A stretch of DNA of 64,000 nt from an uncultured Chloroflexia bacterium (GTDB taxonomy: Bacteria > Chloroflexota > Anaerolineae > Anaerolineales > UBA4823): assembly GCA_963829555.1 (NCBI GenBank), contig CAWHJB010000011.1, forward strand, positions 68,857 through 132,856. The letters are read 5' to 3'. Position numbers and translations under genes: made by a program. Of this stretch, positions 5,297 through 61,707 are shown one piece after another. Numbering within the stretch: the stretch's first letter is position 1; the number at the start of each line of letters is the position of its first letter. The notes under the pieces were generated by a model. It ran no database searches. It saw only the letters and a list, made by a program, of their open reading frames with translations, and had not been told where the DNA came from.

Positions 5297-5346
5297 CAAA
5301 ATAAGGCGTCAGCCTGGGCATTTGCCCAGGCTGACGCCTTATTTTG
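5297..5346. repeat. palindromic element, family A copy 1
   Basis: CAAAATAAGGCGTCAGCCTGGGCA-T-TGCCCAGGCTGACGCCTTATTTTG. It lies between convergent genes. Confidence 0.95.
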
Positions 5347-5374
5347 ACAGAACATCTAATTTCATGAGAAGGGG

Positions 5375-6538
5375 TTAGATCATCTCGGCCGGCAGGTTTG
5401 GAAGGTCAAGGTACAACTCGTCGCAAAACAGCATTGCCCGTTCGATCACATTGCGGAGCTCGCGAATATTGCCAGGCCAGTTGTGCCTGATCAAGGCTTC
5501 CATCGCCCGGGGGGTGACATCCTGAATGTTGAGGCCCATCGCGGGGTTCAGCTTGCGAATGAACAGGCCCACCAGGTCGGGGATATCCTCTTTACGCACT
5601 CGCAGGGGGGGCAGATCCAGATCGACCACCTTCAGACGGTAATAAAGGTCTTCCCGGAATTTACCTTCCTTCATCAAGGCTTGCAAGTCCCGGTTCGAGG
5701 CCGCCAGTATCTGAACGTCCACTTTGATCAGGTTGGTTCCGCCAACCCGCCGGAAAGCGCGCTCTTCCAGGGCCCGCAGCAATTTCGCCTGCATATCGAC
5801 CGGCATGGAAGAAATCTCGTCCAGGAACAGGATCCCGCCATCGGCCACTTCCATCAAGCCGGGCTTGCGTTTTTCCGCTCCCGTAAAAGCTCCCGCTTCG
5901 TAACCGAATAATTCGGATTCCATCACGGTGCTTTGCATGGCGGCGCAATTGATGGCAATGTAGGGTTTATTGTTGCGCGGCCCAAAACGGTGGATCGCGC
6001 TCGCCAATACTTCTTTCCCGGTGCCGGTTTCTCCGGTGATCAGAACGGAGACCGAGGCGCTGGCGGCCCTTTGGGCCTGTTCGATGACTGACTTCATGCG
6101 TGGGCTTTTTCCAATAATGAAATCAAGTTCTCCCTGCCGGGTGCTACGCAAATGGGCCAGCTCTCGTCTCAGCGCGACAGTTTCAGCTGCCCGTTGGATT
6201 GATTTTTCTAATTGCGCCAGCCGGATGGGTTTTTGCAGGAAATCCTGGGCGCCGTTTTTCATGGCGTCGACGGCCATATCGATATCGCCATAAGCGGTGA
6301 TCAGGATGATCGGTGGGCGGGCGGGCAGATGTGCAGTTTCCTCTAACAGGACCGGTCCATAGCCATCCGGTAGTTGCACATCCAACAGGATAATATCCGC
6401 TTCCCCGCGCTGCAGGCAGGTGCGAGCATCCTCCAGGGTGGCGACGCCATTAATCTCATAGCCGCGGGAGGTGAGAAATGTGCCGATATTCTGGCGGGCA
6501 TTATCTTCGTCATCAACAATTAATACTGTAGCGCTCAT
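5375..6538 (-). CDS. sigma-54-dependent response regulator (REC + AAA+), no C-terminal HTH
   Basis: Receiver domain (VLIVDDED...ILLDVQLPDG). AAA+ domain with Walker A GETGTGKE, the GAFTGA loop (EAGAFTGAEKR) and WPGNIRELRNVIERA. The protein ends 18 aa after that motif (387 aa), so there is no room for a Fis-type HTH. Confidence 0.92.
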   Translation of the reverse strand: MSATVLIVDDEDNARQNIGTFLTSRGYEINGVATLEDARTCLQRGEADIILLDVQLPDGYGPVLLEETAHLPARPPIILITAYGDIDMAVDAMKNGAQDFLQKPIRLAQLEKSIQRAAETVALRRELAHLRSTRQGELDFIIGKSPRMKSVIEQAQRAASASVSVLITGETGTGKEVLASAIHRFGPRNNKPYIAINCAAMQSTVMESELFGYEAGAFTGAEKRKPGLMEVADGGILFLDEISSMPVDMQAKLLRALEERAFRRVGGTNLIKVDVQILAASNRDLQALMKEGKFREDLYYRLKVVDLDLPPLRVRKEDIPDLVGLFIRKLNPAMGLNIQDVTPRAMEALIRHNWPGNIRELRNVIERAMLFCDELYLDLPNLPAEMI

Positions 6539-6615
6539 GCTTTCCTCTCACTTGCCTCGCAAAATAATATTCGATCGACTGGTGATTCTTCAGAATTGGT
6601 CTCTGTGGTAGGGTA

Positions 6616-6668
6616 CCAGATTTGGGGGCGTGAGCGTGCTGATGCACGCTCGCGCCCCCAAATCTTGG
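6616..6668. repeat. palindromic element, family B copy 1 (core)
   Basis: CCAGATTTGGGGGCGTGAGCGTGC-TGAT-GCACGCTCGCGCCCCCAAATCTTGG. It sits between the kinase stop and the response-regulator start. Confidence 0.95.
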
Positions 6669-6718
6669 GTAGCGCCACAGGAATTCTCAAAGTCACTCAG
6701 GATTTCCCAGGGATCCGA

Positions 6719-8741
6719 TTAACCTGCCGCTTCCTGGGCGGGAATTTCAACTGTAAACACGGTCCCACCCGGGAAGCTTTCAACCTGGATCCGGCCTTTA
6801 TGGGCTGTGATAATTCGTTTTGCGATCGGCAATCCCAGCCCCGTGCCGTCATGTTTGGTCGTATAAAATGGCTGGAATATTTTGTCCAGATTTTCTTTGG
6901 CGATACCTGGTCCCGTGTCAGCGATGCTGATTTTAACATAGGTTAAACCATGCGGGTAAGCGGCCTTATTCAATTTGACGACTAACTGGCCTCCGCTGCC
7001 GCGCATTGCCTGAACCGCATTGGTGATCAGGTTATTAAACACCTGCTCCAGCACCTTGGGGCTGCCCTCAACTTTGGGCAGGTTATCATCTGCCTGGATC
7101 CGGTATTGGACATTTTCTTTCACGATTCTGGGTTTCAAACGGTCGAGAAGCGATTCGAGCAGCCGTTTAAGATCGATGCTTTCCATATCGTATTCAGCGG
7201 TCCGGGCGAACGAGAGGACTTGCCGCATCTGGTCGGTGAGCCGGTCGCAATCGGTCTGGAGGCGCATGACCACTTCATGATTAGGATCAGGCTCTGGGAT
7301 GGTCATCTCTAAAAGCTGCAGGCCGGTGCTGATATTGTTGATTGGATTACGGACTTCGTGAGCAAAGACAGCCGTGAATTCCCCCAGAAAGGCCTGTTGC
7401 TCCAGCTGGCGGGTCCTGTCCTGATACTGTTCTTGCTCGGTCAGGTCTTCGAATTGAATAATGATGGCGGTCACCTGATCGCCGATCATGACGGGCATCG
7501 TGCGGAGTTGGGCCAGGAATGCCTCACCATTGCGGCGATAGAGCTGGAGCTTACCGACGTCGTAGGTCGGGCGGCCCTGTTGGGCAACTTGCAGGGCAGT
7601 TGAAAGCTCGCCTTTGCCGATGATCACATTTTCAATTGGGATCCCAACAACTTCACGGCTGGTATACCCAAGAGTCATTTCAGCGGACGGGTTGATTTTT
7701 GTGATGATGAGTTCCGGTGTTGTGATTAACAATCCGTCTTTGACCGAATTTACAGCCGTAGAATAAACCGCCAGTTCATTGGTATTCGCCTTTAACCTGG
7801 CTTCCAGGTTGTTCAGCAGGTCGTGTTGGCGGGTCAGGGTTGTGATCGCCGCGGCGATCAACTGTGCCAATCGCAGGATAAAGGGATTGGGCTGCTTTTC
7901 GGCTTCACCGATGACGATAAACCCGTCGATCTCGGGTAATCCGGTAGGCGCGGTGGCAATGAAGCTGTATTCCTTGGAGCGGGCGGTGCGATGCAGAACG
8001 GAGGTCATGCGTTTCCCTGCCGTCCAGAGCTGAGTCGAACGCATATTCACCAATTCTTGGGGGGGAAGCGATTCGGGTAAAACCGTGCCATCGCCGACGA
8101 AAACCTTGCGTTTCAAGTAACTCTCGGCCAGTGGTCGAACCAAATTGCCCCGATGTTTCTTCGTCGCTCATCGCTTCCAGGCGATAGTATCCGATAGCGC
8201 TGGCTTTGGTGAGATCGTGTGCCGCCTGGATCGCCCTGGATAAGGCTGTTTTATCCTCAGTCTCATTGATTGCGGCAGCCATCTGGTACAGATTTTGCCA
8301 GATTTGATCTTGAAACTGCAAATCAGCCAGCGGAAGCGTTTGTATTCTGGTTGGTTCGAATTGAACCAGTTCGAATCGATCGGACTGCCCGAGCGTATTG
8401 CGGTTAATTTGAACGGCAAGTTTGCTCCCGTTACGTTTGATCAACATGCCCTTGCTTGCATCTTGAACGCCGGGAACATCATCGGGGGAGGTGGATGGTT
8501 CTTCTGTTCCCGGGTGGGAGCGTCCAGTGAACAGTTCGTTAAATTTGAGCTGACATAATTCAGCCCGGGTATAGCTGGTCAGTGCAGCGACCCTGGTATT
8601 TGCAAAAAGAACCTGACCATTGTTCTTATCGATCAGGATCGATGCGGCCGGGAGAAGTTCGACAAGTGCCTCGATCTCCGCATGGGTTGGCCTGGTTTTA
8701 CGTCCGGGATTAAAGAAAGAGAGGGGCGATGGAGGTTTCAT
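6719..8741 (-). pseudogene. PAS/GAF sensor histidine kinase, frame interrupted once
   Basis: ORF 7905..8741 covers the N-terminal PAS region. ORF 6719..8143 covers PAS, HisKA (FAHEVRNP) and HATPase (DTGPGI...GTGLGL). The two frames meet near 8144-8167, next to the C4 run at 8148-8151. Confidence 0.85.
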
Positions 8742-10292: not shown

Positions 10293-10326
10293 GTTTCGGG
10301 TTTAGGCTGCACGATATATTTGTAGA

Positions 10327-10374
10327 TTTGGAGTTCAATTTGTGCGGTCTCAGCTGCACAAATTGAACTCCAAA
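10327..10374. repeat. long perfect palindrome (singleton in this window)
   Basis: TTTGGAGTTCAATTTGTGC-(10 nt)-GCACAAATTGAACTCCAAA, in the divergent rpoN/proline-dehydrogenase intergenic region. Confidence 0.9.
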
Positions 10375-10492
10375 AATAATTTTCTACTACATCTTCGTGC
10401 ACCCCGGGTTTATGCTACAATTCAGGTTATCCGGTGCTGTGGTCCTTGTGGAGAAGCTCAGGCTTTTACCGAGGAACCATAACCATTCAATT

Positions 10493-10543: not shown

Positions 10544-10632
10544 TATTCAATCTGTCAATCGGATTCGATCCGATACATATGCTTCATGACTAAATGGTTC
10601 TTTCGCTAAATACCTTTAGGAAAAAGAGCAAA

Positions 10633-10681
10633 TGTAATGTTCATTTTTATGCGGCGTCGCCGCACAAAAATGAACATTACA
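10633..10681. repeat. long palindrome (singleton)
   Basis: TGTAATGTTCATTTTTATGCGGCG-TC-GCCGCACAAAAATGAACATTACA, with one mismatch. Confidence 0.9.
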
Positions 10682-10796
10682 ATCACTTTTCAAAGAAAAA
10701 GGACTTAGCGAGAAAATCACGAAAAGGGTTCATTCGGAAACTGTGTGAGACACCACCCGATGAATTCCCAGAGATCTTCTGAAAGGTTGCACAAAA

Positions 10797-11781: not shown

Positions 11782-11838
11782 AGACAAAATGTAGAGCTCG
11801 CAGGGGCAATTTGCCCCTGCGAGCTCTACATTTTGTCT
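11782..11838. repeat. long palindrome sharing the AGACAAAAT outer module with family A copy 3
   Basis: AGACAAAATGTAGAGCTCGCAGGGGCAA-T-TTGCCCCTGCGAGCTCTACATTTTGTCT. Confidence 0.9.
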
Positions 11839-12319: not shown

Positions 12320-12367
12320 GAAAACAGGCGTGATGGCCGGTGTATACCGGCCATCACGCCTGTTTTC
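12320..12367. repeat. long palindrome (singleton)
   Basis: GAAAACAGGCGTGATGGCCGG-TGTATA-CCGGCCATCACGCCTGTTTTC, downstream of the arsR-like gene. Confidence 0.9.
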
Positions 12368-20005: not shown

Positions 20006-20052
20006 AAAAAAGTGCCGGCGTGGGTAGTGAATATCCACGCCGGCACTTTTTT
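20006..20052. terminator. bidirectional intrinsic terminator-like hairpin downstream of bcp
   Basis: AAAAAAGTGCCGGCGTGG-(11 nt)-CCACGCCGGCACTTTTTT. A 13-bp GC-rich stem flanked by an A-run and a T-run. Confidence 0.8.
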
Positions 20053-20105: not shown

Positions 20106-20168
20106 CTTTGGTATTTTCTGTGGTGGTACCCCAAATCTGGAATAAATCACAGAATTCCCAATGAGCGC
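20106..20168. repeat. family-B flanks without the GC-rich core (core-less site)
   Basis: CTTTGGTATTTTCTGTGGTGGTAC-CCCAAATCTGG-AATAA-ATCACAGAATTCCCAATGAGCGC. The left and right flanks match those of family B copies 3 and 4, but only 11 nt of the core are present. Confidence 0.7.
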
Positions 20169-20803: not shown

Positions 20804-20880
20804 CCGAAATCTGCGGTCCTTTCCCAGGAATTCCTAAAGCTATCCACTGTCAGGAGTTATGGGTATTTCTGAAGTGGTAT

Positions 20881-20934
20881 CCCAGATCTAAGGGTGTGAG
20901 CGTGCATCCGCACGCTCACACCCTCAAATTTGGG
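20881..20934. repeat. palindromic element, family B copy 2 (core)
   Basis: CCCAGATCTAAGGGTGTGAGCGTGC-ATCC-GCACGCTCACACCCTCAAATTTGGG. Confidence 0.95.
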
Positions 20935-20962
20935 ACTCTCCCACAGAGTTTCCTAGGGAGCC
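20932..20962. repeat. dispersed ~30-nt unit abutting family B copy 2
   Basis: GGGACTCTCCCACAGAGTTTCCTAGGGAGCC. Confidence 0.8.
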
Positions 20963-21009
20963 CCACAGCCCCATTTTGAGTAGGTAACGTTTTCGGGTAA
21001 AATAGGCCT

Positions 21010-24304: not shown

Positions 24305-24369
24305 TGCCTACCTCGCAATCTCTCCTGTCATCAGGATTGGGAAAGGATCCTTCAATGCCTGAGAACCGG

Positions 24370-24423
24370 GGGCGAAATAGGTGTGCGTGGGGGTGTACAC
24401 CCCCACGCACACCTATTTCGCCC
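24370..24423. repeat. palindromic element, family D copy 1
   Basis: GGGCGAAATAGGTGTGCGTGGGGG-TGTACA-CCCCCACGCACACCTATTTCGCCC. Confidence 0.95.
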
Positions 24424-24524
24424 ATCTCCCGTAATCATGCCTGAGTAGATCCGCTAAATTTAGTATAAACCATATTCCTGGAGGGCGCGGGATGAACTTT
24501 TGCCGCAACTCACCACGGGTTATG

Positions 24525-24576
24525 GCAAAATCAGGGGGCAGCGTGGGCATTTGCCCACGCTGCCCCCTGATTTTGC
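24525..24576. repeat. palindromic element, family A variant (copy 5)
   Basis: GCAAAATCAGGGGGCAGCGTGGGCA-T-TGCCCACGCTGCCCCCTGATTTTGC. It shares the GCGTGGGCA/TGCCCACGC core and the AAAAT/ATTTT ends with family A. Confidence 0.9.
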
Positions 24577-24609
24577 TAGATCCTCCCGAACCAATGAGCT
24601 GTACCTGAA

Positions 24610-26868: not shown

Positions 26869-27103
26869 AGTATTTTATCCATGGAGACAACAAGGCTGGT
26901 TAAGTACGGAGGCACAGAGAAGCCGCTCAAACCCAACATCAAGGCACTTCCAAGTTAAGGCCGGGGGATCAGCTTACAGCTCCTTTCCGGCAGGCCCCAA
27001 TGAAATTATAATTCGGAGGCATCTTGAGATACATAAAAGTTGTGTGAAATGCATTCGTTTGAAGGGTAATGGGCCCTTGCAAATTTATCAGAATCCAATT
27101 TCA

Positions 27104-27158
27104 GGGTCTCTGGGTAACTCCATGGGAGAATTCCATCTCAGGAATTCCCAAAGGATCC
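27104..27158. repeat. dispersed ~55-nt unit, copy 2
   Basis: GGGTCTCTGGGTAACTCCATGGGAGAATTCCATCTCAGGAATTCCCAAAGGATCC. Confidence 0.85.
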
Positions 27159-27184
27159 AATTTTAAGCTGGGGAAAGAGTTGAA

Positions 27185-27802: not shown

Positions 27803-28357
27803 GCAGGACAGCCTTAGGACTTCATCCACGGTGCCTGACCACAGAGTGCCTCACTAATCAGAGTTACAGTTCCTTAGGATTTCCTCCACAGCGCCGCAGC
27901 GCCCTTCTTTCTCAATGAAACTGTTTTTGCGAGGAGGGCGTTCTTTGCCCAAGCCGGCACTTCACGGCCAAGCAATCTATCTTATTATTGCGATAGGATC
28001 GGTTATGAAGATTGCTTGCCAAAGAGAACACGGCATGCCCAAGTTCGGCTCCTAAGGAACTGTCATTACCATTTCGAGGCACCCTGAGTGGAAGCTGAAG
28101 GAGCGTTCTTTGCTCTGGAGGCTGTAATCGCAGAGCGGTTTCTAATTCAAACCTGGTCATCCTTCGATTACGTTCGGTGAGCAAAAAACGCTCACCTCTC
28201 TCCACTCAGGATGCCTGCTTTCTGGCACTGTCAGGTTCCTTTCTGATTGAAATGTGCGCCAGCATTGTGGAGTTACTCGCAAAGACATTACCAACAAGAA
28301 CAGTTTCCAAAGATCTTGTTGGCGAAGGGGGTCTTTGGGGAATTCCTGTGGTGCTAC

Positions 28358-28411
28358 CCCAGATTTGGGGGTGTGAGCGTGCATCCGCACGCTCACACCC
28401 CCAAATCTGGG
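28358..28411. repeat. palindromic element, family B copy 3 (core)
   Basis: CCCAGATTTGGGGGTGTGAGCGTGC-ATCC-GCACGCTCACACCCCCAAATCTGGG. Confidence 0.95.
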
Positions 28412-28439
28412 ACCCTCCCACAGAGATTCCGGAAGAGCC
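28409..28439. repeat. dispersed ~30-nt unit abutting family B copy 3
   Basis: GGGACCCTCCCACAGAGATTCCGGAAGAGCC. Confidence 0.8.
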
Positions 28440-28496
28440 GGCGAAGGCCGGTCCGTTTTCCGATTGTTGCCTTTAATTTCTAAAAAACGGTTGAAG

Positions 28497-28540
28497 AATA
28501 AAAAACGGCGGGTACTGCTGTTACTCAGCACCCACCGTTT
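28497..28540 (-). terminator. intrinsic terminator downstream of upp
   Basis: The minus strand reads ACGGUGGGUGCUG-(8 nt)-CAGUACCCGCCGU followed by UUUUUU, 22 nt after the upp stop. Confidence 0.8.
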
Positions 28541-28561
28541 GAAAACGAGGTGAAAGCGTCT

Positions 28562-29330: not shown

Positions 29331-29373
29331 GTCCTTTCAATTATAGCTGCAAATCCGAGTTATAATCAGGCTT

Positions 29374-30733: not shown

Positions 30734-30783
30734 GCGAAATATGTGTGCGTGGGGGCGTACGCCCCCACGCACACATATTTCGC
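30734..30783. repeat. palindromic element, family D copy 2
   Basis: GCGAAATATGTGTGCGTGGGGG-CGTACG-CCCCCACGCACACATATTTCGC. The AGG-to-ATG change in one arm is mirrored in the other. Confidence 0.95.
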
Positions 30784-30823: not shown

Positions 30824-31846
30824 ATGAAAACTGACGATTTCAATTACGACCTGCCTCCGGAACATATTGCTCAGACCCCGGCTACCCCGCGTGACGCTTC
30901 TCGTTTGCTGGTGTTGAACCGCCAGACGGGTATGGTTCAGCACAGCATATTCCATCAATTGCCCGAATTTTTACAGCCGGGTGATTTGCTGGTTTTGAAT
31001 GAAACCCGGGTCATCCCCGCCCGCATTTTTGCTCGTAAAGTTCCAACCGGTGGGCGAGTGGAAATATTACTGCTCCACCAGGAAAATGAACGAACCTGGG
31101 AATGCCTGGTCGGCGGGAAAGGCCTTTCCGCAGGCAGGCAGCTCCAACTGGAGGACGGACCGGCTGCCCAAATTCTCGAGGTGCTGGATGGACCGCGCCG
31201 CCTGGTTCGGTTCGAACAAGCCCTGGATACTTATCTGGCCGGTTCCGGGCAGATGCCGCTTCCGCCGTATATCCATACGCCGCTGGCAGACCCGGAACGA
31301 TACCAGACGGTTTATGCCCGCCAACCCGGTTCAGCGGCTGCTCCGACCGCCGGGCTGCACTTCACACCTGGCCTTCTGGAGCATCTGCGTGAAATCGGGA
31401 TCGGTCTGACGACGGTTACCCTGCATGTCGGCCTCGATACTTTTGCTCCCGTGACCGAAGAATCCCCAGAAGAGCACAAAATCCACACAGAATGGTGCCA
31501 GCTTTCATCCCAAGCCGCCGAACTTATCAACCGTACCCACCAGCAAGGCGGGCGTATCATCGCAGTTGGCACGACCAGCGTGCGCACACTGGAGACTGCC
31601 GCCCAAAGGGCCCTTCCGGGGGAACTGGTCAAACCCTTCAGTGGTTCAACCGACTTATTCATCCTACCCGGCTATCAATTTAAAGCTATTGATGCTATGA
31701 TCACCAATTTCCATTTGCCCCGTTCGACCCTGATCATGCTGGTGAGCGCGTTTGCAGGTCGCGAAAAAATTCTCGACACCTACCAACTGGCAGTTCAGGC
31801 GGGCTATCGTTTTTACTCTTTTGGCGATGCCATGCTGATTCTATAA
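30824..31846 (+). CDS. queA: S-adenosylmethionine:tRNA ribosyltransferase-isomerase
   Basis: From ORF 30743..31846. Start moved to ATG 30824 (MKTDDFNYDLPPEHIAQ), because the upstream part of the ORF is only the family-D palindrome. Motifs: GSAAAPTAGLHFT and AVGTTSVRTLE. Confidence 0.95.
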   Translation: MKTDDFNYDLPPEHIAQTPATPRDASRLLVLNRQTGMVQHSIFHQLPEFLQPGDLLVLNETRVIPARIFARKVPTGGRVEILLLHQENERTWECLVGGKGLSAGRQLQLEDGPAAQILEVLDGPRRLVRFEQALDTYLAGSGQMPLPPYIHTPLADPERYQTVYARQPGSAAAPTAGLHFTPGLLEHLREIGIGLTTVTLHVGLDTFAPVTEESPEEHKIHTEWCQLSSQAAELINRTHQQGGRIIAVGTTSVRTLETAAQRALPGELVKPFSGSTDLFILPGYQFKAIDAMITNFHLPRSTLIMLVSAFAGREKILDTYQLAVQAGYRFYSFGDAMLIL

Positions 31847-31964
31847 GAATCCCCAGTCATGTCTTGCTCGCGATTTATATCTGAGCGATTTCGGCACGAT
31901 ATTTCAGAGTACTGTATATTTCGTTCTACAAATTCATCAACACCCTACTGATATGCAATGATAA

Positions 31965-32018
31965 GGAAAAATTAGGCGTCAGCCTGGGCATTCGCCCACG
32001 CTGACGCCTAATTTTTCC
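31965..32018. repeat. palindromic element, family A copy 2
   Basis: GGAAAAATTAGGCGTCAGCCTGGGCATTCGCCCACGCTGACGCCTAATTTTTCC. One arm position is unpaired (CCTGGG vs CCCACG). Confidence 0.95.
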
Positions 32019-32087
32019 AGAATTCCCGCATATTTCATGCTATGCTGATCCTGTAAGGGCGCACGAAAATGCTGTAGAAAATTATTT

Positions 32088-32133
32088 TTGGTATTCGATT
32101 TGGGCGGCCTCAGCCGTCCAAATCGAATACCAA
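32088..32133. repeat. long palindrome (singleton)
   Basis: TTGGTATTCGATTTGGGCGG-CCTCAG-CCGTCCAAATCGAATACCAA, with one G-T position. Confidence 0.9.
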
Positions 32134-32162
32134 TCTACAGGATCATTCTCTAAGGAGAAACG

Positions 32163-37762: not shown

Positions 37763-37860
37763 CCCGGTCGACCAGCAGTTTGTTGATGCACCCATTTGAT
37801 TTTGTCGACGGCGACATTGTCAAAATAATCAACCGGGCTAAACAATCAACCACAGCGTAT

Positions 37861-41787: not shown

Positions 41788-41894
41788 GCCAACCAGGCGC
41801 GTGTCCTCAACTCATTTAAGGTGAGGAATCAGAATAATTATCAATTCTAACCAGTTTACAGAGGGGGAAACCTACCAAATATGCAAAATGTTCT

Positions 41895-43322
41895 TTAAGC
41901 TGCGACCGTGCGGTCTCTTCCGTCGGATTTTGCCCGGTATAAAGCCTGGTCGGCCAGTTCCAACAGGCTTTTCAAATCCCCCATATCATCGGTGATACCG
42001 GCGATGCCCAGGCTGATGCTCACCGCGATGCGGGCTATCGGTGTTTTGAGCGCGGTTGTCTTTATCCTTTCACGCAGCCGATCCGCGACAATCTGGCCTC
42101 CCGACATGTCAATTTCCGGCAGGAGCACAACGAATTCATCCCCGCCATAACGCCCGATGATATCTACCTTGCGGACGCTGTTCGTCAGGGCAACTGCAAC
42201 CAATTTGAGAACATCATCGCCGACCGAATGCCCAAAGTTATCGTTAACTTGTTTGAAGAAATCGATATCGCCCATGATCGCGGTCAAGGGTCTCCCAAAT
42301 CGGTGAGCACGCTCAATTTCCCGTTCGCCCAGTTCGAACAATCCTCGGCGATTATATAAGCCGGTCAGTGCATCGGTAATCGCCAGTTTTTGAACTTCCG
42401 TGTGCAATTGCGCATTGTGGATCGCGGCCGTCACGGTGGCTGCAAAGCTGACCAGCAAACTCAAATCTGACTGGCTGAAAGCCGATTCGGTATTCGCCTC
42501 GAGGGATACTGCCCCTAATACATCCCCTTCCAGGATTAAAGGCGCAACGATTGCGGATTGCGACAATTCCAGTTCATCAGCTTTTTCCTGAACATCATTG
42601 GGCAGGTTTCCGTTTTCTATTTTGGGAATCAGTAAAGGTTTCCGGGTCCGCACGGATTGGGCCACAAAGCCGCGGCTGGTCTGGGTGGACAGCCTTTGAA
42701 TCCTGGGATTATGCTCTCCATATCCAAGCGTGGCGCGCATTTCCAGTTTGCCGGTATCCTTGGCAATGATGTGCAGGGTACCCTTATGGGCTGCCGGGAT
42801 GGCATTCGTCGCTGCATCCAGGATTTGATTCAAGAGATCTTCGAGGTTAAGCGTCGTCAGTAAAGCCCGTGTGGCTGTGTACAGCCCCTCGATCTTGCGG
42901 TTGACATATTTTTGGGCGATATCTTGAACTTGCTGTTCATTAAAGGGAACACCGACCGCCATCACTTCCTGCAAATTCCCATCCTCAGAAAATTTACCAG
43001 ATAATTTCCAATGCAGGATGTCGTGATGGCTTTCAGAGAATTTATCCGTTCGGTTAACTTCGAGCTGGGGGTGATCTTCGACCAGAGCGGTAAAATGGGT
43101 TTGAATTTCGGTGTGCTGTTCCTTTGGAAGCGCCTTAAAGACATTCAAACCAATAATTTTCTCAGCCGGGATGGCATAATATTCCTCAAATGCCGGATTT
43201 ACGTAAAGAACGGTCCCATCTGGCTTTAGCTGGCAGATGAGTTGGGTCTGATCTTCGACGATCGCACGGAACTGCGCGTCGTCATCGTGCTTTCGTCTGT
43301 CATTATGGAAAGATCGCAGCAT
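41895..43322 (-). CDS. PAS-GAF-GGDEF diguanylate cyclase
   Basis: 475 aa. C-terminal GGDEF domain (RYGGDEFVVLL) preceded by LTGLYNRRG. Confidence 0.9.
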   Translation of the reverse strand: MLRSFHNDRRKHDDDAQFRAIVEDQTQLICQLKPDGTVLYVNPAFEEYYAIPAEKIIGLNVFKALPKEQHTEIQTHFTALVEDHPQLEVNRTDKFSESHHDILHWKLSGKFSEDGNLQEVMAVGVPFNEQQVQDIAQKYVNRKIEGLYTATRALLTTLNLEDLLNQILDAATNAIPAAHKGTLHIIAKDTGKLEMRATLGYGEHNPRIQRLSTQTSRGFVAQSVRTRKPLLIPKIENGNLPNDVQEKADELELSQSAIVAPLILEGDVLGAVSLEANTESAFSQSDLSLLVSFAATVTAAIHNAQLHTEVQKLAITDALTGLYNRRGLFELGEREIERAHRFGRPLTAIMGDIDFFKQVNDNFGHSVGDDVLKLVAVALTNSVRKVDIIGRYGGDEFVVLLPEIDMSGGQIVADRLRERIKTTALKTPIARIAVSISLGIAGITDDMGDLKSLLELADQALYRAKSDGRDRTVAA

Positions 43323-43418: not shown

Positions 43419-43473
43419 CCCAAATTTTGATGTGTGTGGCGGGAGTTGCCCGCCACACACATCAAAATTTGGG
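43419..43473. repeat. palindromic element, family C copy 1
   Basis: CCCAAATTTTGATGTGTGTGGCGGG-AGTTG-CCCGCCACACACATCAAAATTTGGG. Confidence 0.95.
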
Positions 43474-47681: not shown

Positions 47682-47735
47682 CCAAATTTTGATGTGTGTG
47701 GCGGCCGCCCGCCCGCCACACACATCAAAATTTGG
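47682..47735. repeat. palindromic element, family C copy 2
   Basis: CCAAATTTTGATGTGTGTGGCGG-CCGCCCGC-CCGCCACACACATCAAAATTTGG. The left flank CAGGATAC is shared with copy 3. Confidence 0.95.
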
Positions 47736-47791: not shown

Positions 47792-49130
47792 TCAGGTTAT
47801 CATTCGGTCTTGCCGGAGTAAATCGTCGGGCTTTTCCCGCTCCTGGATCAGGCTGGCCTGCTGCCTTTCCAGCCACAGCACTGCCGGCCGCAAAGCCCCA
47901 TTATAATGGCTGCTCATGCTGAGCTGGTAGGCGCCGGATGCGGGGACAGCCAGCAGTTCACCGGAAGATAGCTTGGGCAAGGCCAAATCCTTGGCCAGGA
48001 TATCGCCGCTCTCACAGGCCGGACCACCCAGCCAAAACGCGCCTGCAGCCGGTCGCCTAATTGCCTCAACTGGCAGCGCGCTGTATTGGCTACCATATAA
48101 GGCCGGCCTGGGGTTATCAGCCAGCCCGCCATCCAGCAAGATCCAATGCCGGTCGCCGCTCTGTTTCAGAGTGCCTACCCGGTAAAGCGCCACGCCGGCT
48201 CGTCCAACCAGGCTGCGTCCCGGTTCAAGTTGCAGGTGGGGTAAGGGCAGGGCATAGTTCTGGCAGACTTTCTGTAAATTGGAAGCGATGGTATGTACAA
48301 ATGTCTCGATGGAAGTACCCGGCAGATCGCTTTCATGATAGGCAATTCCTAACCCGCCGCCGGGGCAAAAATACCTGGCTGTCCAGCCGGTTGAAGTGCG
48401 CAGGGCAGCCAGCAGCCGGCCTCCTTTTTGAATGGCAACTTCAAGCGGGGTTAAATTCTTGCATATTCGAGCCGAGATGGAAGTGCAACCCGGTCAATGG
48501 TAAGCTGCTCTCCAGGCAAAGCCGTACAGCCTGAAAGATCTCCTCACTGGAAAAGCCAAATTTACTTTCCGCCCGGGCTGTCTGTACGTGGCTGTGGGTT
48601 TCAACGCTCAATCCTGGACGCCACCGGAGCCAGATTTCAGGAAAAGTCGTCAACCCGGAACGGAACTGCTCCCGAAGCATGATTAACTCTTCCATGTGAT
48701 CCACGACCAGGATACCCGCCTGCCGGATGCCGGCCAGGATATCCTGCCTGCGCTTGTTCACACCATGCTGAACGGTCAGCTCGCGGGGTACCCCGGCTTG
48801 TTTAACGATGTGAAGTTCGCTGGCACCGCTGCAATCGATCTTGATACCCTGGGCGCTCATCCAGTGCGCAATGGCCAGGCACAGGTAAGCTTTACCGGCA
48901 TAGGTAAGCCCACTGGCGGCGGGATATTCCCGGTCCAGTGCCTGACGATAGCGCTGAACAGCATCCAGAATGGTAGCCTGGTCATAGATGTATAAAGGCG
49001 TGCCATATTCTTCCGCCAGCCTCCCAAGTTCTAAACCCCCAATCTGCAAGGAATTCTTCTCTGAATGGATGGCTGCACTGATCGGAAATAAGGCCAGGCG
49101 CTGGTCGATTGGATAATTGCTATTGGCCAT
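47792..49130 (-). pseudogene. lysA: diaminopimelate decarboxylase, frame interrupted at a C4 (plus-strand G4) run
   Basis: N-terminal ORF 48441..49130 (TPLYIYD, YAGKAYL). The other frame reads straight through from about 48440 to 47792 (CPGGGLGIAYHE, EPGRSLVGRAG, ...LAVPASGAYQLSMSS). The switch is at GGGG 47-50 of 48447-48450. Confidence 0.9.
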
Positions 49131-50050: not shown

Positions 50051-50113
50051 GGGCCTGATTTTAACATAATCAGGTACGCAATATGAGCGACGTTCCCATA
50101 AAATAGACATTAA

Positions 50114-50170
50114 AGACAAAATAAGGCGTCAGCCTGGGCATTGCGCCCAGGCTGACGCCTTATTTTGTCT
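50114..50170. repeat. palindromic element, family A copy 3
   Basis: AGACAAAATAAGGCGTCAGCCTGGGC-ATTGC-GCCCAGGCTGACGCCTTATTTTGTCT. Confidence 0.95.
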
Positions 50171-50209
50171 CATTATCGGTTTATTAAGAACCTATCCGAT
50201 AATTGTTAT

Positions 50210-50250
50210 TGTGGTTGTTGATGCGTGCGGAGCACGCATCAACAACCACA
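50210..50250. repeat. long palindrome (singleton)
   Basis: TGTGGTTGTTGATGCGTGC-GGA-GCACGCATCAACAACCACA, 40 nt from family A copy 3. Confidence 0.9.
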
Positions 50251-50277
50251 TACCCTTTCGAATTTTCGGATAGATAT

Positions 50278-53847: not shown

Positions 53848-54099
53848 TCAGATCCGCGTTGATGCACCCAGGTTTCCTTCGTGGTGATGCGCCTGGCTGT
53901 CGCCCGGTATAAACAGCTCATCCCGGGGACAGCGTTCACAACCGGAACCATCCTGGATAATCACGATGGCCGGGCAGGCTGAATAGGCGATAAATTGCAC
54001 CGGATGCATCTGGTCTGCGTTCGGATTGTTTATCCTGCGAAGATAGATCCCGCCGAATTCCAGACTTGCAGGACGGGTAAAAACCTGTTGGTGAGTCAT
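53848..54099 (-). CDS. hypothetical protein (83 aa)
   Basis: ORF-track entry with coding-like composition. No family recognised. Confidence 0.4.
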   Translation of the reverse strand: MTHQQVFTRPASLEFGGIYLRRINNPNADQMHPVQFIAYSACPAIVIIQDGSGCERCPRDELFIPGDSQAHHHEGNLGASTRI

Positions 54100-54178
54100 T
54101 GCGCTGCTCCAATCTTGTTTGAAACCGTTTTCTTTTCCCAGCTTAGCACGATAAAAATTTGAAAACGATCACCTGCGC

Positions 54179-54215
54179 GGGGGATTTAGGGGTGGATTCG
54201 GGGGGATCAAGGGGG
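54179..54215 (+). other. G-quadruplex-forming motif (G5-N5-G4-N7-G6-N5-G5)
   Basis: GGGGGATTTAGGGGTGGATTCGGGGGGATCAAGGGGG, in the divergent intergenic region 54100-54450. Confidence 0.6.
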
Positions 54216-54233
54216 CGCAGTCAAAATGTGTAG

Positions 54234-54283
54234 ATCCAGCGTTCGGTTTGGCCGGCGGATGCCGGCCAAACCGAACGCTGGAT
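54234..54283. repeat. long palindrome (singleton) with GGAT loop
   Basis: ATCCAGCGTTCGGTTTGGCCGGC-GGAT-GCCGGCCAAACCGAACGCTGGAT, 48 nt from family B copy 4. Confidence 0.9.
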
Positions 54284-54330
54284 TTCATTTTCTGCAACTT
54301 TTGGGTCTTTAGGAAAATCTTTGGAATAGT

Positions 54331-54384
54331 CCCAGATTTGGGGGTGTGAGCGTGCGGATGCACGCTCACACCCCCAAATCTGGG
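54331..54384. repeat. palindromic element, family B copy 4 (core, loop inverted)
   Basis: Arms are identical to copy 3, but the loop is GGAT, the reverse complement of ATCC. This copy is therefore inserted in the opposite orientation. Confidence 0.95.
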
Positions 54385-54450
54385 GCACCACCACAGAAAT
54401 TCCCAATGGGCGCACCTTTGAGCGCTTCCTTATGAGGGCCGTCATGTATA

Positions 54451-55320: not shown

Positions 55321-55367
55321 TCGTCCCGATCCAACGCTCATGATTTAAACAGCAGTGCTTGAAAATT

Positions 55368-55405
55368 AAAGTACCAGCGTGGGCGTTCGCTCAGGCTGGT
55401 ACTTT
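55368..55405. repeat. imperfect palindrome with a family-A-like core
   Basis: AAAGTACCAGCGTGGGC-GTTC-GCTCAGGCTGGTACTTT, with two mismatches. Confidence 0.8.
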
Positions 55406-55560
55406 ATTTGTGGGTGCATTCGAGATGTTTTAACCACCACAGGTATTCCCAATGAGGCATTTGTTTGCCTCTGGCATTTTTGGCAGCGATCGATTATAAT
55501 TAGAACAAATGTACTAATCTCTAAGAATATTGGTATCTGCTTTGACAATGTCATCTTAAT

Positions 55561-55620
55561 AAACAGGATACCCAAATTTTGAGGTGTGTGGCGGGCAGCC
55601 GCCCGCCACACACCTGTTTC
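55561..55620. repeat. chimeric palindromic element (family C left half, family-D-like right half)
   Basis: AAACAGGATACCCAAATTTTG-AGGTGTGTGGCGGG-CAGCC-GCCCGCCACACACCT-GTTTCGCC. Only the 14-bp inner stem pairs. Confidence 0.85.
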
Positions 55621-57187: not shown

Positions 57188-57198
57188 ACGGCAATGTC

Positions 57199-57246
57199 AA
57201 AACAAGGCGTCAGCGTGGGCAAACGCCCACGCTGACGCCTTGTTTT
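57199..57246. repeat. palindromic element, family A copy 4
   Basis: AAAACAAGGCGTCAGCGTGGGC-AAAC-GCCCACGCTGACGCCTTGTTTT. Confidence 0.95.
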
Positions 57247-57389
57247 AACAGAACCTCTGGGATCAGAAACTGGAGGTATAATTAATCCGATATAGTTGAT
57301 CGGAAATAGGCTGGGGGACAGCCCGCGGCAGGGAACGGCCTGCTGGTTCGTTTGTTCTCAAATGGGGGAAGAAACATGAGAGGTTCATA

Positions 57390-59916: not shown

Positions 59917-59971
59917 GACTGCGCCAGCAGCATAAACAATATGGTCATTACTCAGCCACAGCAGAATAGAC

Positions 59972-60025
59972 GCCTAAATGGGTGTAGGTGGTAGGCGTAC
60001 GACCACCACGTACACCCATTTAGGC
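59972..60025. repeat. long palindrome (singleton)
   Basis: GCCTAAATGGGTGTAGGTGGTAGGCGTACGACCACCACGTACACCCATTTAGGC. The outer 15 bp pair perfectly; the inner part is imperfect. Confidence 0.85.
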
Positions 60026-60149
60026 CACATTTTTACATCCGGCTGAGATGAACCAAAATATTATTGCGGATTTCTAAAAGATTGGCCTTTCAGAAATTCG
60101 CATGTTCTTTACTGCTGAAAATATGAGGCTGACCAGAGTAGAACCTACC

Positions 60150-61652
60150 ATGAAAAAATTCATCCGCGAGAATATTCACTTGTTGATCCTTGGCCTGGTG
60201 GTAACGATGATCCATGGCCTTACGAACGGTCAATATGGCTTTCATCGGGATGAGCTGGATATTATCCTGAACGCCCGCCAGCTGGATTGGGGGTATGTTG
60301 CCTATCCGCCCTTCACACCCTGGATAGCCAGTCTGGGCCTGGCCTTATTTGGCAATTCCCTGCAGGGGCTGCGGTTGTTTTCAGCCTTGGGCCAGGGTAT
60401 TTGTGTTGTGTTGGTTGGATTGATAGCCCGTGATTTGGGCGGCAGCCGGTCGGCTCAGATCATGGCAGCCATCGCGGCTGCGGTTGCGCCGGTGGCGCTG
60501 ACTGCCGGCACCATGATCCAGTATATGTCCTTCGATTATCTCTGGTGGGTGGCAATCGCTTTCTGCTTCGTGCGCCTGCTGGCAAGCGAGAATCCTCGCT
60601 GGTGGCTGGGTGTTGGGATTGCCATTGGCATGGGCATGATGACCAAATACACGGTGGTTTTCTTTGTCGCCGGATTGGTGGCGGCAACCCTGCTCACCGG
60701 GTATCGCCGCTATTTGCGCTCACCCTGGCTGTGGGCAGGCGCCGGATTGGCCGTATTGATCTGGCTTCCCAACCTGCTCTGGCAGATCCGGCACGACTTT
60801 ATTTCGCTGGAGTTCCTGAGCGCCATCCACGCCCGTGACATCGAGTGGGGCCGTACCCAGGGCTTTCTGCCCGAGCAGCTCTATATCGCCGCGAATCCAC
60901 TCACGCTGCCGCTGTGGCTGCTTGGATTGTACCTGATCTTGTTTACCCGGCGCATGCGGCGATTTTTCGTCCTGGGTGTCGCCTTCCTGATAACATTTAT
61001 TTTATTGTGGGCTTCGCAGGGCAGATCCTACTATGTCGGCCCGGCTTACACCCTGCTGTTGGCCGCCGGGGCGGTGGGCCTGGAGGGCTGGATCCGACAA
61101 CTGCGTGCTCCCTGGCAGAAGCTCGGACAATCACTGGCCTGGGGTTTGTTAGGGTTGGCAGCCGTACTTGGCGTCGCCCTGGTCAAGCCTATTCCACCCA
61201 TCCAATCCGCCTGGTGGGATGTGCTCGCTTCCGTCAATGGCGAGGTGGTGGAAATGGTCGGCTGGCAGGATCTGACCGCCCAGGTGGCCGATATCTACGC
61301 CGGGCTGCCATCCGAGGAAAAAGCACGCACTGCCATCCTGGCAGGAAATTACGGCGAAGCCGGGGCTCTGGATCTATACGGTCGGGACTACGGTTTGCCC
61401 CTGGTTATCAGCGGCTCGAACAGTTTGTGGGCGCGGGGGTATGGCAGCATCGATCCGGAGACGATCATCGTGGTTGGGTTTGAAGCCGCCTACGCCAGTT
61501 ATTTTTTCAAAGAATGCGATTACGCCGGGCGAGTGACAAACCAGTACAATGTCTCCAATGAGGAAACCAGCGATCATACCGGGTTGTATGTGTGCCGCCA
61601 GCCTCGTAACCCCTGGGCGGAAATGTGGCCGCAAATGCAGTGGTTTCAATAA
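60150..61652 (+). CDS. glycosyltransferase family 39 (ArnT/PMT-like) membrane protein
   Basis: From ORF 60102..61652, with the start at ATG 60150. The polytopic N-terminal two-thirds begins with the first-loop motif FHRDELD. Soluble C-terminal domain. Confidence 0.75.
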   Translation: MKKFIRENIHLLILGLVVTMIHGLTNGQYGFHRDELDIILNARQLDWGYVAYPPFTPWIASLGLALFGNSLQGLRLFSALGQGICVVLVGLIARDLGGSRSAQIMAAIAAAVAPVALTAGTMIQYMSFDYLWWVAIAFCFVRLLASENPRWWLGVGIAIGMGMMTKYTVVFFVAGLVAATLLTGYRRYLRSPWLWAGAGLAVLIWLPNLLWQIRHDFISLEFLSAIHARDIEWGRTQGFLPEQLYIAANPLTLPLWLLGLYLILFTRRMRRFFVLGVAFLITFILLWASQGRSYYVGPAYTLLLAAGAVGLEGWIRQLRAPWQKLGQSLAWGLLGLAAVLGVALVKPIPPIQSAWWDVLASVNGEVVEMVGWQDLTAQVADIYAGLPSEEKARTAILAGNYGEAGALDLYGRDYGLPLVISGSNSLWARGYGSIDPETIIVVGFEAAYASYFFKECDYAGRVTNQYNVSNEETSDHTGLYVCRQPRNPWAEMWPQMQWFQ

Positions 61653-61662
61653 TTAAGACAGG

Positions 61663-61707
61663 CCCGAACGGGATGGATGGCGTACCTCGCCATCCATCCC
61701 GTTCGGG
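61663..61707. repeat. long palindrome between convergent genes
   Basis: CCCGAACGGGATGGATGGCG-TACCT-CGCCATCCATCCCGTTCGGG. Confidence 0.9.

Follow-up and report, generated by a model that had tools for sequence, protein, structure and literature searches.

In a 64-kb window of DNA from an uncultured Anaerolineales (Chloroflexota) bacterium (the window being the whole stretch analysed), long palindromes recur in the gaps between genes, which raises the question whether they are stop signals for transcription, mobile repeats, or both, and how stems of such length are kept perfect. The reading preferred here, to which we assign a probability of about 0.7, is that small palindromic repeats without coding capacity, in seven or more families together with single copies, have come to populate the intergenic DNA of this organism. 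These are of two kinds, MITEs and bare palindromes, and the reading includes their placement, their putative function and the proposed maintenance of their stems.

Census and genomic placement

Nineteen perfect palindromes with a stem of at least 12 bp and a loop of at most 10 were found in the window; the stem reaches at least 18 bp in 16 of them, the longest being 28 bp (11782-11838), and a loop is absent in two, 24370-24423 (27+27) and 30734-30783 (25+25). An earlier note on this DNA had counted at least 25 long perfect palindromes, whose existence and positions stand, but a total of 26 is reached only when copies with one to three mismatches are included (6618, 10633, 20880, 31965, 32088, 45723, 55367, 57195, 59972). 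Twenty dinucleotide-preserving shuffles of the window never gave a stem longer than 12 bp, and palindromes with stems of at least 14 bp number 18 in the 64-kb window versus 6 in 842 kb of unrelated prokaryotic DNA. The families A, B, C and D proposed in the earlier note proved real on sequence comparison, as did the module AGACAAAAT common to 11782 and 50114. The copy at 55561 does belong to family C, but its pairing is half-degenerate and limited to 55582-55615; the elements of B and E and that at 10633 are longer, extending over about 100-125 nt with imperfect outer arms.

All 26 palindromes are intergenic, and none lies in coding DNA of the window. Almost every intergenic region had been said to hold one, which is overstated, as 20 of the 41 gaps of at least 40 nt are occupied: 4 of 6 convergent gaps, 14 of 20 tandem gaps of at least 100 nt and 2 of 7 divergent ones. 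The elements persist only in intergenic DNA, typically 7-76 nt past a stop codon (median about 38 nt). Divergent promoter regions harbour four of them, and some separate genes whose co-transcription is probable, namely a kinase/regulator pair and DUF2905 with queA. Mosaics of different units occur inside single gaps (24305-24609, 50051-50277, 54100-54450). The elements are compiled below in window coordinates, with the strand in brackets.

5297..5346 (.) family A palindrome; arms of 24 bp, fully paired around a tt loop; bears an A-tract and a T-tract; convergent genes, 38 and 28 nt past both stops
6583..6696 (.) family B element; core 6618-6665, 1-2 mismatches; histidine kinase/response regulator gap, 53 nt past kinase stop
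10298..10413 (.) family E MITE (assigned by build); terminal repeats 10306-10326 and 10383-10405, core 10327-10374 (19 bp); divergent rpoN/proline dehydrogenase region
10298-10305 GGGTTTAG and 10406-10413 GGGTTTAT (.) target duplication of the preceding element
10598..10716 (.) family F element of about 120 nt; outer arms 10598-10620 and 10704-10716 imperfect, core 10633-10681
11782..11838 (.) single-copy palindrome; 28-bp perfect arms; 22 nt past proline dehydrogenase stop; T-tracts both sides
12320..12367 (.) single-copy palindrome; 22-bp arms; 35 nt past ArsR stop; T-tracts both sides
20006..20052 (.) single-copy palindrome (AAAAAAGTGCCGGCGTGG...); classic two-way terminator shape; 56 nt past AhpC stop
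20853..20963 (.) family B element; core 20880-20935 with 3 mismatches, all transitions; behind cytochrome c gene
24370..24423 (.) family D palindrome; 27+27 bp, zero loop; F-like element in its place in sister strain
24525..24576 (.) family A variant (GGGGGCAGCGTGGGCA); 25-bp arms; 33 nt past Ser/Thr kinase stop; sister-strain copy diverged, imperfect
28321..28447 (.) family B MITE (assigned by build); terminal repeats 28329-28351 and 28418-28439, core 28358-28411 (25 bp perfect); convergent genes
30734..30783 (.) family D palindrome; 25+25 bp, zero loop; between DUF2905 and queA
31827..32036 (.) 210-nt segment with family A palindrome 31965-32018; flanked by imperfect 21-nt direct repeat of queA 3' end; missing in sister strain
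32057..32141 (.) family E element; terminal repeat on the left at 32057-32078; core 32088-32133; degenerate at its right end
43419..43473 (.) family C palindrome; 25-bp arms; 27 nt past stop codon
45723..45764 (.) single-copy palindrome; 17 bp, 1 mismatch; convergent PYNP/ApbA gap
47682..47735 (.) family C palindrome; 23-bp arms; 56 nt past diaminopimelate decarboxylase stop
50114..50170 (.) family A palindrome; 26-bp arms; T-tracts both sides
50210..50250 (.) family G palindrome (TGTGGTTGTTGATGCGTGC); 27 nt past penicillin amidase stop
54211..54303 (.) family E element; core 54234-54283, 23 bp perfect; divergent region
54303..54415 (.) family B element, reverse orientation; core 54331-54384, 25 bp perfect; directly adjoins the preceding E element on its right
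55367..55406 (.) single-copy palindrome; stem of 19 bp with 2 mismatches; T-tracts; 46 nt past EamA stop
55561..55615 (.) family C copy; inner 15 bp perfect (55582-55615); outer left arm retained, right partner lost
57195..57250 (.) family A palindrome; 22 bp perfect in window, 26 bp in sister strain; 7 nt past stop codon
59972..60025 (.) single-copy palindrome; stem of 21 bp with 1 mismatch, loop of 12 nt
61663..61707 (.) single-copy palindrome with a perfect 20-bp stem; convergent genes, 10 and 38 nt past stops

Two kinds of element

Judged by their build, families E and B are non-coding MITEs of 100-125 nt: a central hairpin that pairs perfectly over 19-25 bp lies between terminal inverted repeats that match imperfectly, and the target site is duplicated over 8-9 bp. 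Family F is probably a MITE of the same construction. In family E the conserved terminal repeat GGGAGCACTCAAAnnTTGTAGA is found at both ends (9 copies), and each of the nine complete copies, from at least five organisms, is flanked by 8-9-bp direct repeats that match at 7 or more of 8 positions, such as ACCCAGAG, GAAGAGGC and CACGCATCC. Recent mobility is seen in a filled site set against an empty one, in that the sister strain carries an E copy between duplicated TGAATTATG (9-11 bp) while the window site is empty; family E is found in further species as well. Its terminal repeats contain TGTAGA, yet E makes target duplications. Family B has the terminal repeat GGGTCTTTGGGGAATTCCTGTGG and a convincing target duplication in just two of six copies; the element at 28321..28447 shows a perfect 8-bp duplication, GGCGAAGG, at 28321 and 28440. 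A second, internally deleted copy of family F resides in the sister strain at the position of the family D palindrome 24370 of the window.

The members of families A, C, D and G, like the single copies, are bare palindromes of 40-57 nt that have neither terminal repeats beyond the palindrome itself nor a target duplication, and they appear REP-like in kind. Relatives of family G with compensated changes are known (L124 and L248). Because neither a target duplication around the A, C and D copies was seen in the flank comparison nor a clean empty site for them in the strain comparison, the mobility of these three families rests on near-identical dispersed copies and complex polymorphisms. They may have spread by a mechanism that leaves no target duplication and regenerates the perfect palindrome from one arm.

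Comparison with related strains and species

Insertion polymorphism between strains, proposed in the earlier note as a check, was found: further cases of presence/absence or replacement relative to the sister strain are located at 24370, 31827-32036 and 36390. Copies outside the window, likewise looked for, exist in the sister strain, other species and other assemblies, the same or related palindromes being present in the sister contig, in two congeners, in unrelated JGI metagenome contigs and in the RRYU01 metagenome organism, which harbours about 90 palindromes of at least five families in about 330 kb. In related species the DUF2905/queA junction is a 64-70-nt gap with no hairpin, and the short gap downstream of queA is also hairpin-free; since they are missing at the same junctions there, the hairpins of the window are insertions, not ancestral signals. 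The PYNP/ApbA gap holds an unrelated palindrome in one related species and none in another. The form of the contig names ('contig_NNNN') hints at long-read assembly, and single-base indels that break genes distinguish the window from the sister contig.

The mobilising enzyme

Terminal inverted repeats combined with 8-9-bp duplications are the mark of a DDE-type cut-and-paste transposase, so a hairpin-mobilised Y1 mechanism does not fit E and B. These two families, and probably F, would be moved in trans by a DDE-type transposase encoded elsewhere; an autonomous partner with matching terminal repeats around a gene was not found in any locus examined. The earlier note had suggested REP/BIME-like mobile intergenic palindrome families with conserved pairing, which is supported, and mobilisation of the hairpins by a RAYT or IS200/IS605 Y1 enzyme, which fails for E and B and finds no tag beside A-D: a GTAG or CGTC tag is not conserved in the flanks of the A, B, C and D palindromes. 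The gene calls covering the window from 1 to 62 kb include neither the Y1 transposase it had proposed to look for nor any other transposase or RAYT; there is no RAYT (Y1 HUH) gene in the 8.5 kb beyond the window either, and no transposase of any kind in about 85 kb of the sister contig examined.

It is improbable, in this context, that the families as a whole, or A, C and D if not the others, are REPs or REPINs mobilised as single-stranded hairpins by a RAYT (IS200/IS605 Y1) encoded elsewhere. Short intergenic palindromes in several families, lying downstream of genes and with complementary stem variants, agree with REPs as described (PMC3733652), and the lack of target duplications around A, C and D is expected of Y1 transposition. 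On the other hand, Y1 enzymes do not make the terminal inverted repeats and 8-9-bp duplications of E and B, the GTAG or CGTC tag is missing from A-D, and a Y1_Tnp domain is missing from the gene calls over 1-62 kb. Furthermore, the stems here are 15-28 bp long and mostly perfect (18-28 bp in the perfect ones), outside the REP range of 6-9 bp (12-13 at the utmost, G-T pairs or bulges being frequent), and RAYT cleavage in vitro was lost once a REP stem had been strengthened (PMC3733652).

How the stems stay perfect

The claim that pairing is kept through compensated arm changes is borne out by family A, in which 10 of 23 pairs have changed on both sides and 96% of cells are paired, a result equalled in 0 of 500 shuffles. 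The palindrome at 5297 differs from that of the sister strain at 5306/5337 and 5308/5335, both differences being compensated, within flanks diverged by 0.4%. In the 40-62-kb part, however, the palindrome cores of the two strains are identical but for one change, so that the palindromes are no hypermutable sites in general, and recombination could have imported the compensated changes at 5297. The inner stems of family E comprise 193 bp with zero mismatch, while the outer terminal repeats of the same copies are 70% complementary. In the inner 12 bp of 14 independent families, G-C to C-G pairs stand at 84:28 and T-A to A-T pairs at 40:16, the 5' arms of the palindromes being G/T-rich; this asymmetry is weak in the other genomes. 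Among the RRYU copies the loop is inverted relative to fixed flanks in 11 of 24. The excess of G-C and T-A is in the direction predicted for replication template switching, where the 5' base settles which pair becomes fixed (PMC8794818).

It can be rationalized that stems remain perfect despite sequence drift if, as is probable, both arms are reset together, either by replication template switching within the palindrome or by gene conversion between copies; selection for hairpins on both strands possibly reinforces the joint reset. A more far-reaching proposal, that perfect stems are not mainly selected but continually re-symmetrised in the DNA by intrastrand template switching or arm-to-arm conversion, with the 5' base deciding, is tentative and somewhat doubtful. 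If true, it would make these 'self-correcting' palindromic elements and a large natural demonstration of hairpin maintenance by template switching.

A probable role in transcription termination

Transcribed from either strand, the elements would fold into very stable hairpins, and the palindromes probably act in part as transcription stop signals. The shape of a two-way intrinsic terminator, a GC hairpin with a T-tract in both directions, is displayed by 9 of the 26 (five A copies, 11782, 12320, 20006 and 55367), and the canonical form is absent in B, C, D, E, F and G. The U-tract is missing in 17 of 26, and termination by these copies is doubtful because mycobacterial RNA polymerase requires a U-tract at intrinsic terminators (PMC3993855). 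The A-type copies and four single copies, with their A-tract, GC core and T-tract, are probably two-way intrinsic terminators; the remaining elements are probably 3'-end barriers, processing sites or neutral passengers. The earlier remark that termination is not the whole story holds, with T-tracts in only 9 of 26 and some elements in divergent promoter regions.

Alternative explanations

Ordinary two-way intrinsic terminators could have evolved in place, the 'families' then reflecting convergence on a terminator grammar instead of copying. The position close behind stop codons, the A-tracts and T-tracts in 9 of 26 and the unrelated palindromes in the convergent PYNP/ApbA gap of two species are in line with this; family copies 45 kb apart, however, are 96% identical over 51 nt, the same junctions are hairpin-free in related species, 17 of 26 have no U-tract, four elements sit in divergent promoter regions and some between probably co-transcribed genes. 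Together with the target duplications and the clean empty site, this makes evolution in place very unlikely; as a sole explanation it has been largely refuted, given those duplications and the polymorphism between strains. Slimmer still is the chance that the palindromes are paired, inverted copies of a DNA uptake sequence, an arrangement that doubles as a terminator in Neisseria and Pasteurellaceae. Repeated sequences forming terminator-like hairpins are a known signature of uptake signals, as Kingsford et al. reportedly described in 2007, but the 10-12-mers of the arms are almost confined to the palindromic elements instead of being scattered singly through genes, and there are many unrelated arm sequences, not one motif.

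Least credible of all are assembly or base-calling artefacts of a long-read metagenome assembly. Single-base indels between the window and the sister contig do break genes, and a systematic motif error would strike both palindrome arms symmetrically; yet two strain sequences, assembled independently, share the palindromes, other A copies with the GGCGTC motif are called alike in both strains, and related families appear in other contigs, in JGI and in other metagenome assemblies. Moreover, artefacts would be expected inside genes too and would lack target duplications. For the palindromes as such this reading is refuted, a small residual doubt attaching only to the two compensated differences at 5297. 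Integron attC sites, which belong to gene cassettes of single orientation and have conserved RYYYAAC / GTTRRRY core sites, were also considered and rejected: the flanking genes are housekeeping genes on both strands, and no core sites were seen by eye in the arms.

Significance

If colonisation by small mobile palindromes is the correct reading, an abundant group of uncultured soil Anaerolineales shows to what extent such repeats can remodel gene boundaries, with about half of the gaps holding an element, gaps that exceed those of related species in length several times over, and hairpins of two-way terminator form arriving behind genes ready for use. The combination of 18-28-bp perfect stems, paired changes between near-identical strains, outer repeats that drift versus inner stems that stay perfect, and a 3:1 excess of G-C over C-G is rare, and would offer a useful natural test of replication template switching against selection alone in keeping hairpins perfect. 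In practical terms, metagenome-assembled genomes suffer from such repeats, which disrupt or mislead both the assembly and the annotation of gene boundaries; the repeats can also serve as strain-level markers.

Relation to known systems

The elements are a variant of already known MITE, REP and TRIT-like repeats. Bacterial MITEs that fold over their whole length into a hairpin include the Correia elements of Neisseria, which duplicate TA, Nezha of cyanobacteria and Chunjie of Geobacter. With these, E and B share a length of 100-125 nt, the non-coding character, terminal inverted repeats and target-site duplications, and they are likewise multi-copy, intergenic, strain-polymorphic and common to several species. 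They differ in a central 19-25 bp that is always perfect and varies by paired changes, next to outer repeats only about 70% complementary, and, from the Correia elements, in a duplication of 8-9 bp instead of TA.

The families A, C and D resemble the REP/BIME/REPIN system (PMC3733652) as short extragenic palindromes, mostly downstream of genes, with complementary stem variants, mosaics of units in one gap and no target duplication; unlike there, no GTAG/CGTC tag is present, the perfect stems measure 18-28 bp versus 6-13 bp, and the sequence examined contains no RAYT. Template-switch (quasipalindrome) mutation (PMC8794818; in E. coli, PMC7202029) offers parallels in multi-base compensated changes, perfect stems by the loop, inverted loops and G-C and U-A pairs that outnumber C-G and A-U, although it is a mutational mechanism, not an element family, and is read here from its footprints only. 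The TRIT of mycobacteria (PMC3152330) is likewise a sequence-conserved palindrome, and so a bidirectional hairpin, with many copies closely tied to gene ends and the classical U-tail mostly missing. It is, however, a single family whose copies run into the final stretch of the coding sequence (around position -8), whereas the elements described here form many families, stand 7-76 nt past the stop codon and have in some cases demonstrably transposed.

A dense population of intergenic palindromes

The palindromes of the window are real and form a dense intergenic population of several mobile families, singled out by unusually long perfect stems and by template-switch-like footprints. An exact scan (stem of at least 12 bp, loop of at most 10 nt) returned 19 perfect palindromes, 16 of which have stems of 18–28 bp; two palindromes are loop-free. 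The longest stem in 20 dinucleotide-preserving shuffles of the window never exceeded 12 bp. As a background control, 842 kb of unrelated prokaryotic DNA, reused from loci with chance matches to the 16-mer AGGCGTCAGCSTGGGC, contained six stems of at least 14 bp and one of at least 18 bp, compared with 18 and 16, respectively, in the 64-kb window. The 16-mer, too short a pattern for the 596-Gb contig collection searched, had given at least 120 chance matches, with no palindrome among the matches listed.

The earlier note had counted at least 25 perfect palindromes. Long perfect palindromes do exist, but this figure was too high, and a total of 26 is reached only if one to three mismatches are allowed. 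To place them in almost every intergenic region was also too strong, as 20 of the 41 gaps of at least 40 nt hold at least one. Its families A, B, C, and D reappeared in an all-against-all comparison, and three further families (E, F, and G) were shown. Families E, B, and probably F are MITEs of 100–125 nt; A, C, D, G, and the single copies are bare palindromes of 40–57 nt. Rfam families were found neither in the window nor in four related loci, tRNAs were absent from the window, and literature searches did not turn up repeats of this kind for Anaerolineae or Chloroflexi.

Palindromes, elements, and mosaic gaps of the window
10327, 32088, and 54234: copies of family E
10598–10716: family F
24305–24609: mosaic gap, D and A
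24370–24423: loop-free palindrome (27+27)
28329–28439: copy of family B
30734–30783: loop-free palindrome (25+25)
31847–32162: mosaic gap, A and E
50051–50277: mosaic gap, G and A
54211–54415: mosaic gap, E and B, abutting

Conserved pairing

The proposal that both arms change together, such that the hairpin is maintained, agrees with the alignment of eight A-type copies, in which 10 of 23 pairs are altered on both sides and 96% of the cells remain paired, a covariation unmatched by 500 shuffles or by slid registers. A close comparison is provided by the ENA metagenome contig ERZ25039549:contig_12767 (140 kb), nearly identical to the window and distinct in sequence, which was treated as a sister strain. 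The A copy at 5297 differs from its sister counterpart in exactly two pairs, 5306/5337 and 5308/5335, within flanks diverged by 0.4%; the GGCGTC motif in other A copies is called identically in both sequences, which argues against a base-calling artefact. In family E, 60 of 198 positions are mismatched in the outer terminal repeats (only 70% complementarity), against none in the adjoining inner stems, which pair perfectly over 17–25 bp in each copy even though their sequence varies from copy to copy.

One A-type stem position, CAGC[C/G]TGGGC, toggles between C and G among copies (5315–5316, 24544, 31983, and 55378, with their partners), and is the sole mismatch of three palindromes (31965, the sister counterpart of 24525, and 55367), as though recombination between the two variants were continuing.

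Placement relative to genes and possible function

None of the 26 palindromes lies within a gene, with intergenic DNA making up only 14% of the window. According to a curated gene list (gaps of at least 40 nt, the tandem class of at least 100 nt), palindromes occur in four of six convergent, 14 of 20 tandem, and two of seven divergent gaps. The first palindrome follows the stop codon by 7–150 nt (median ≈ 38 nt), the same placement as in REPs (PMC3733652); such proximity does not separate function from survival bias. On the minus strand, positions 53848–54099 encode an 83-residue reading frame with Cys-Pro motifs, no Pfam match, and 48% identity over 62 residues in a related species. It probably represents a genuine small gene, in which case 54100–54450 is a divergent promoter region.

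Nine palindromes (five A copies, 11782, 12320, 20006, and 55367) combine a GC core with at least five to six T within 8 nt in both directions, a two-way intrinsic terminator shape that fits their position. This count was made separately because the built-in terminator scan (1–20 kb; 20 counted pairs maximum, strict tail), which flagged 11782, 10327, and 10633, missed 5297, 12320, and 20006, which are the remaining T-tract copies there. The U-tract, reported in PMC3993855 as required at intrinsic terminators by mycobacterial RNA polymerase, is absent in B, C, D, E, F, and G, whose copies may represent 3'-end barriers, RNase III-type processing sites, or passengers.

Mobility and turnover

Window and sister strain differ by 0.3–2.6% depending on the region, in addition to single-base indels that break some genes. 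Homologues of the window's QueA and penicillin-amidase-like proteins are labelled Anaerolineales or Chloroflexota by their sources, and syntenic loci of three more distant relatives were compared as well; exact-protein matches for RuvB, MocR, and Usp were not obtained, start codons or residues being different.

Syntenic relatives
L124: QueA 83% identity
L125: QueA 78% identity, on a 2.5-Mb contig
L247: amidase 85% identity

The strain comparison called for by the earlier note revealed insertion and replacement differences at four sites. An extra E copy in the sister lies directly 3' of the stop codon of a Ser/Thr kinase gene, between duplicated (CC)TGAATTATG, where the window has a clean empty site. 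Conversely, a 210-nt segment (31827–32036) that includes the A copy at 31965 is missing from the sister; at its bounds the 3' end of queA is repeated imperfectly over 21 nt. The site of the D copy at 24370 is occupied in the sister by an internally deleted F-like element, and the site equivalent to window ≈ 36400 carries a D-like palindrome there. Within the 210-nt segment, positions 31893–31935 (GGCACGATATTTCAGAGTA ... TTCTACAAATTC) resemble both E terminal repeats devoid of the central hairpin, and could derive from an E copy by loss of the palindromic centre.

General hypermutability was considered and rejected: over 40–62 kb all 12 palindromes are common to window and sister, and a single core change in twelve shows that the elements do not generally mutate fast. 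In related species, the DUF2905/queA and queA/next-gene junctions are short (54–70 nt) and hairpin-free, whereas in the window they measure 129 and 316 nt and contain D, A, and E; the palindromes there are thus insertions and not ancestral signals. At the convergent PYNP/ApbA gap, the palindrome of the window is unrelated to that of L247, and L125 is devoid of one. Density is lower in the relatives (two per ≈ 20 kb each in L124 and L125, seven in 22 kb in L247) than in the window (≈ 8.5 per 21 kb). In the sister, the 8.5 kb past the window end add one more palindrome, a G-like copy with compensated differences from the window G. Among the relatives, L125 carries a unique loop-free perfect palindrome of 30+30 bp at 3089–3148 (TTGTCCCAAAAAATATCCATAGGTACCTGC...), 30 nt after a LuxR-type regulator gene, and the corresponding gap after the regulator gene of L124 a G-type palindrome ≈ 110 nt from the stop codon.

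Identity to the sister is uneven, being 97.4–98.8% with several indels in one region (24.6–42 kb; window 24600–42000) and 99.67% with almost none in the other (40–62 kb; window 40300–62460), and substitutions cluster at 6086–6152 and 6566–6715. Such a distribution suggests that tracts were imported by recombination from a less closely related lineage. Single-base indels (window 4847, 8117, 9071, 10521, and others) split genes in one or the other sequence: the histidine kinase occupies 6719–8143 and 7905–8741 in the window and one gene of 673 residues in the sister, RpoN has 483 residues in the window vs 363 as called in the sister, and a hypothetical gene of 482 residues is likewise interrupted in the window. 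Long-read assembly errors seem more likely here than pseudogenes. The diaminopimelate/ornithine decarboxylase at 47792–49130, two frames in window and sister and intact (452 residues) in L247, could reflect a genuine pseudogene or else a homopolymer error common to both sequences.

Anatomy of the MITE-like families

The sole complete E copy of the window (10306–10405) measures ≈ 100 nt, with terminal inverted repeats GGGAGCACTCAAAnnTTGTAGA, a one-sided A/T-rich bulge of ≈ 10 nt, and a perfect central hairpin. The family is also found in the sister strain, L125, and several unrelated JGI metagenome contigs, a scan with the E core having given many low-GC unrelated matches, from which only contigs of GC 0.48–0.59 were kept. 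All nine complete copies are flanked by direct repeats of 8–9 bp, unrelated in sequence between copies (ACCCAGAG, GAAGAGGC, CACGCATCC, TGAATTATG, GGGTTTAG/T, and others), each matching at seven or more of eight positions, a match that would arise by chance with a probability of ≈ 4e-4 per copy if the position is fixed. Family B (≈ 110 nt, terminal repeats GGGTCTTTGGGGAATTCCTGTGG) shows a perfect 8-bp duplication, GGCGAAGG, in the copy at 28329–28439, and TTTCGCC in one L247 copy; four further copies inspected had no visible target duplication. Family F has the same build as E and B. None of the loci compared contained an autonomous element whose terminal repeats match those of E or B.

A solitary CCAGATTTGGGG, an outer-arm piece of family B, lies at 20129–20140 in the gap after AhpC, with no full B element near. 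The only transposase-related call in any syntenic locus is a DDE_Tnp_1_6 fragment of 67 residues downstream of queA in L124 (11062–11265).

Possible template switching and the perfection of stems

According to Mönttinen and Löytynoja, template switching during replication can make perfect stems, fix several pairs per event, and invert loops, and intrastrand switching sets a pair by its 5' base, such that G-C and U-A become enriched (PMC8794818). Template switching would explain four footprints, namely perfect inner stems, multi-base paired changes, G/T asymmetry, and loop inversion. Paired multi-base changes do occur between close strains. G outnumbers C in the 5' arm of 26 of 26 palindromes, and the inner 12 bp of 14 independent window families show G-C:C-G of 84:28 and T-A:A-T of 40:16, an asymmetry that is weak in other genomes (84:70 and 41:33). 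Loop inversion comes from RRYU01, a metagenome organism (GC 54%) brought to light by the scan with the E core, with ≈ 90 perfect palindromes (stem of at least 16 bp) in ≈ 330 kb. They belong to five or more families (including GTTCGGTTTGGTGTGGCGGC, GGGGCGTCCTGGCGGCACACGC, and TTTTTTCAAAAAATGTTCCC), have 3-nt loops, and are embedded in ≈ 240-nt composite repeats of several perfect hairpins (contigs L126–L245, e.g. L183 5430–5670), in which the flanks keep one orientation and the central loop reads AAA in 11 and TTT in 13 of 24 copies. Searches with tblastn found no close orthologues of window proteins in the metagenome loci, RRYU01 among them. With window and RRYU01 taken together all four footprints are present, from which we infer that template switching may keep the stems perfect; conversion among copies could play a part too, as could selection that favours a hairpin on either strand.

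Relation to known systems

An assembly artefact, for which the earlier note had proposed genome-wide counts, is excluded by palindromes in independent assemblies: the sister strain, the relatives, and JGI contigs carry the same or related families, and the RRYU01 palindromes extend the phenomenon beyond this window, strain, and assembly. Four other readings were rejected: DNA uptake sequences, ruled out by how the k-mers are distributed; CRISPR repeats, as the palindromes are not arrayed; hairpin-telomere sites, as dozens of sites lie within one chromosome; and attC sites. Viral contigs scanned for A and B contained neither.

Families E and B behave as MITEs, with terminal repeats, target duplications, and both filled and empty sites, the partner transposase being absent from the loci compared. 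For A, C, D, and G, similarity ends at the palindrome edge (40–57 nt), and no duplication is visible. A, C, and D would work in the manner of REPs or of the mycobacterial TRIT motif (PMC3152330), but they differ from REPs in the features compared: the GTAG/CGTC tag is absent, and their stems are perfect and two to three times the length of a REP stem. The gene calls covering ≈ 70 kb include no RAYT gene.
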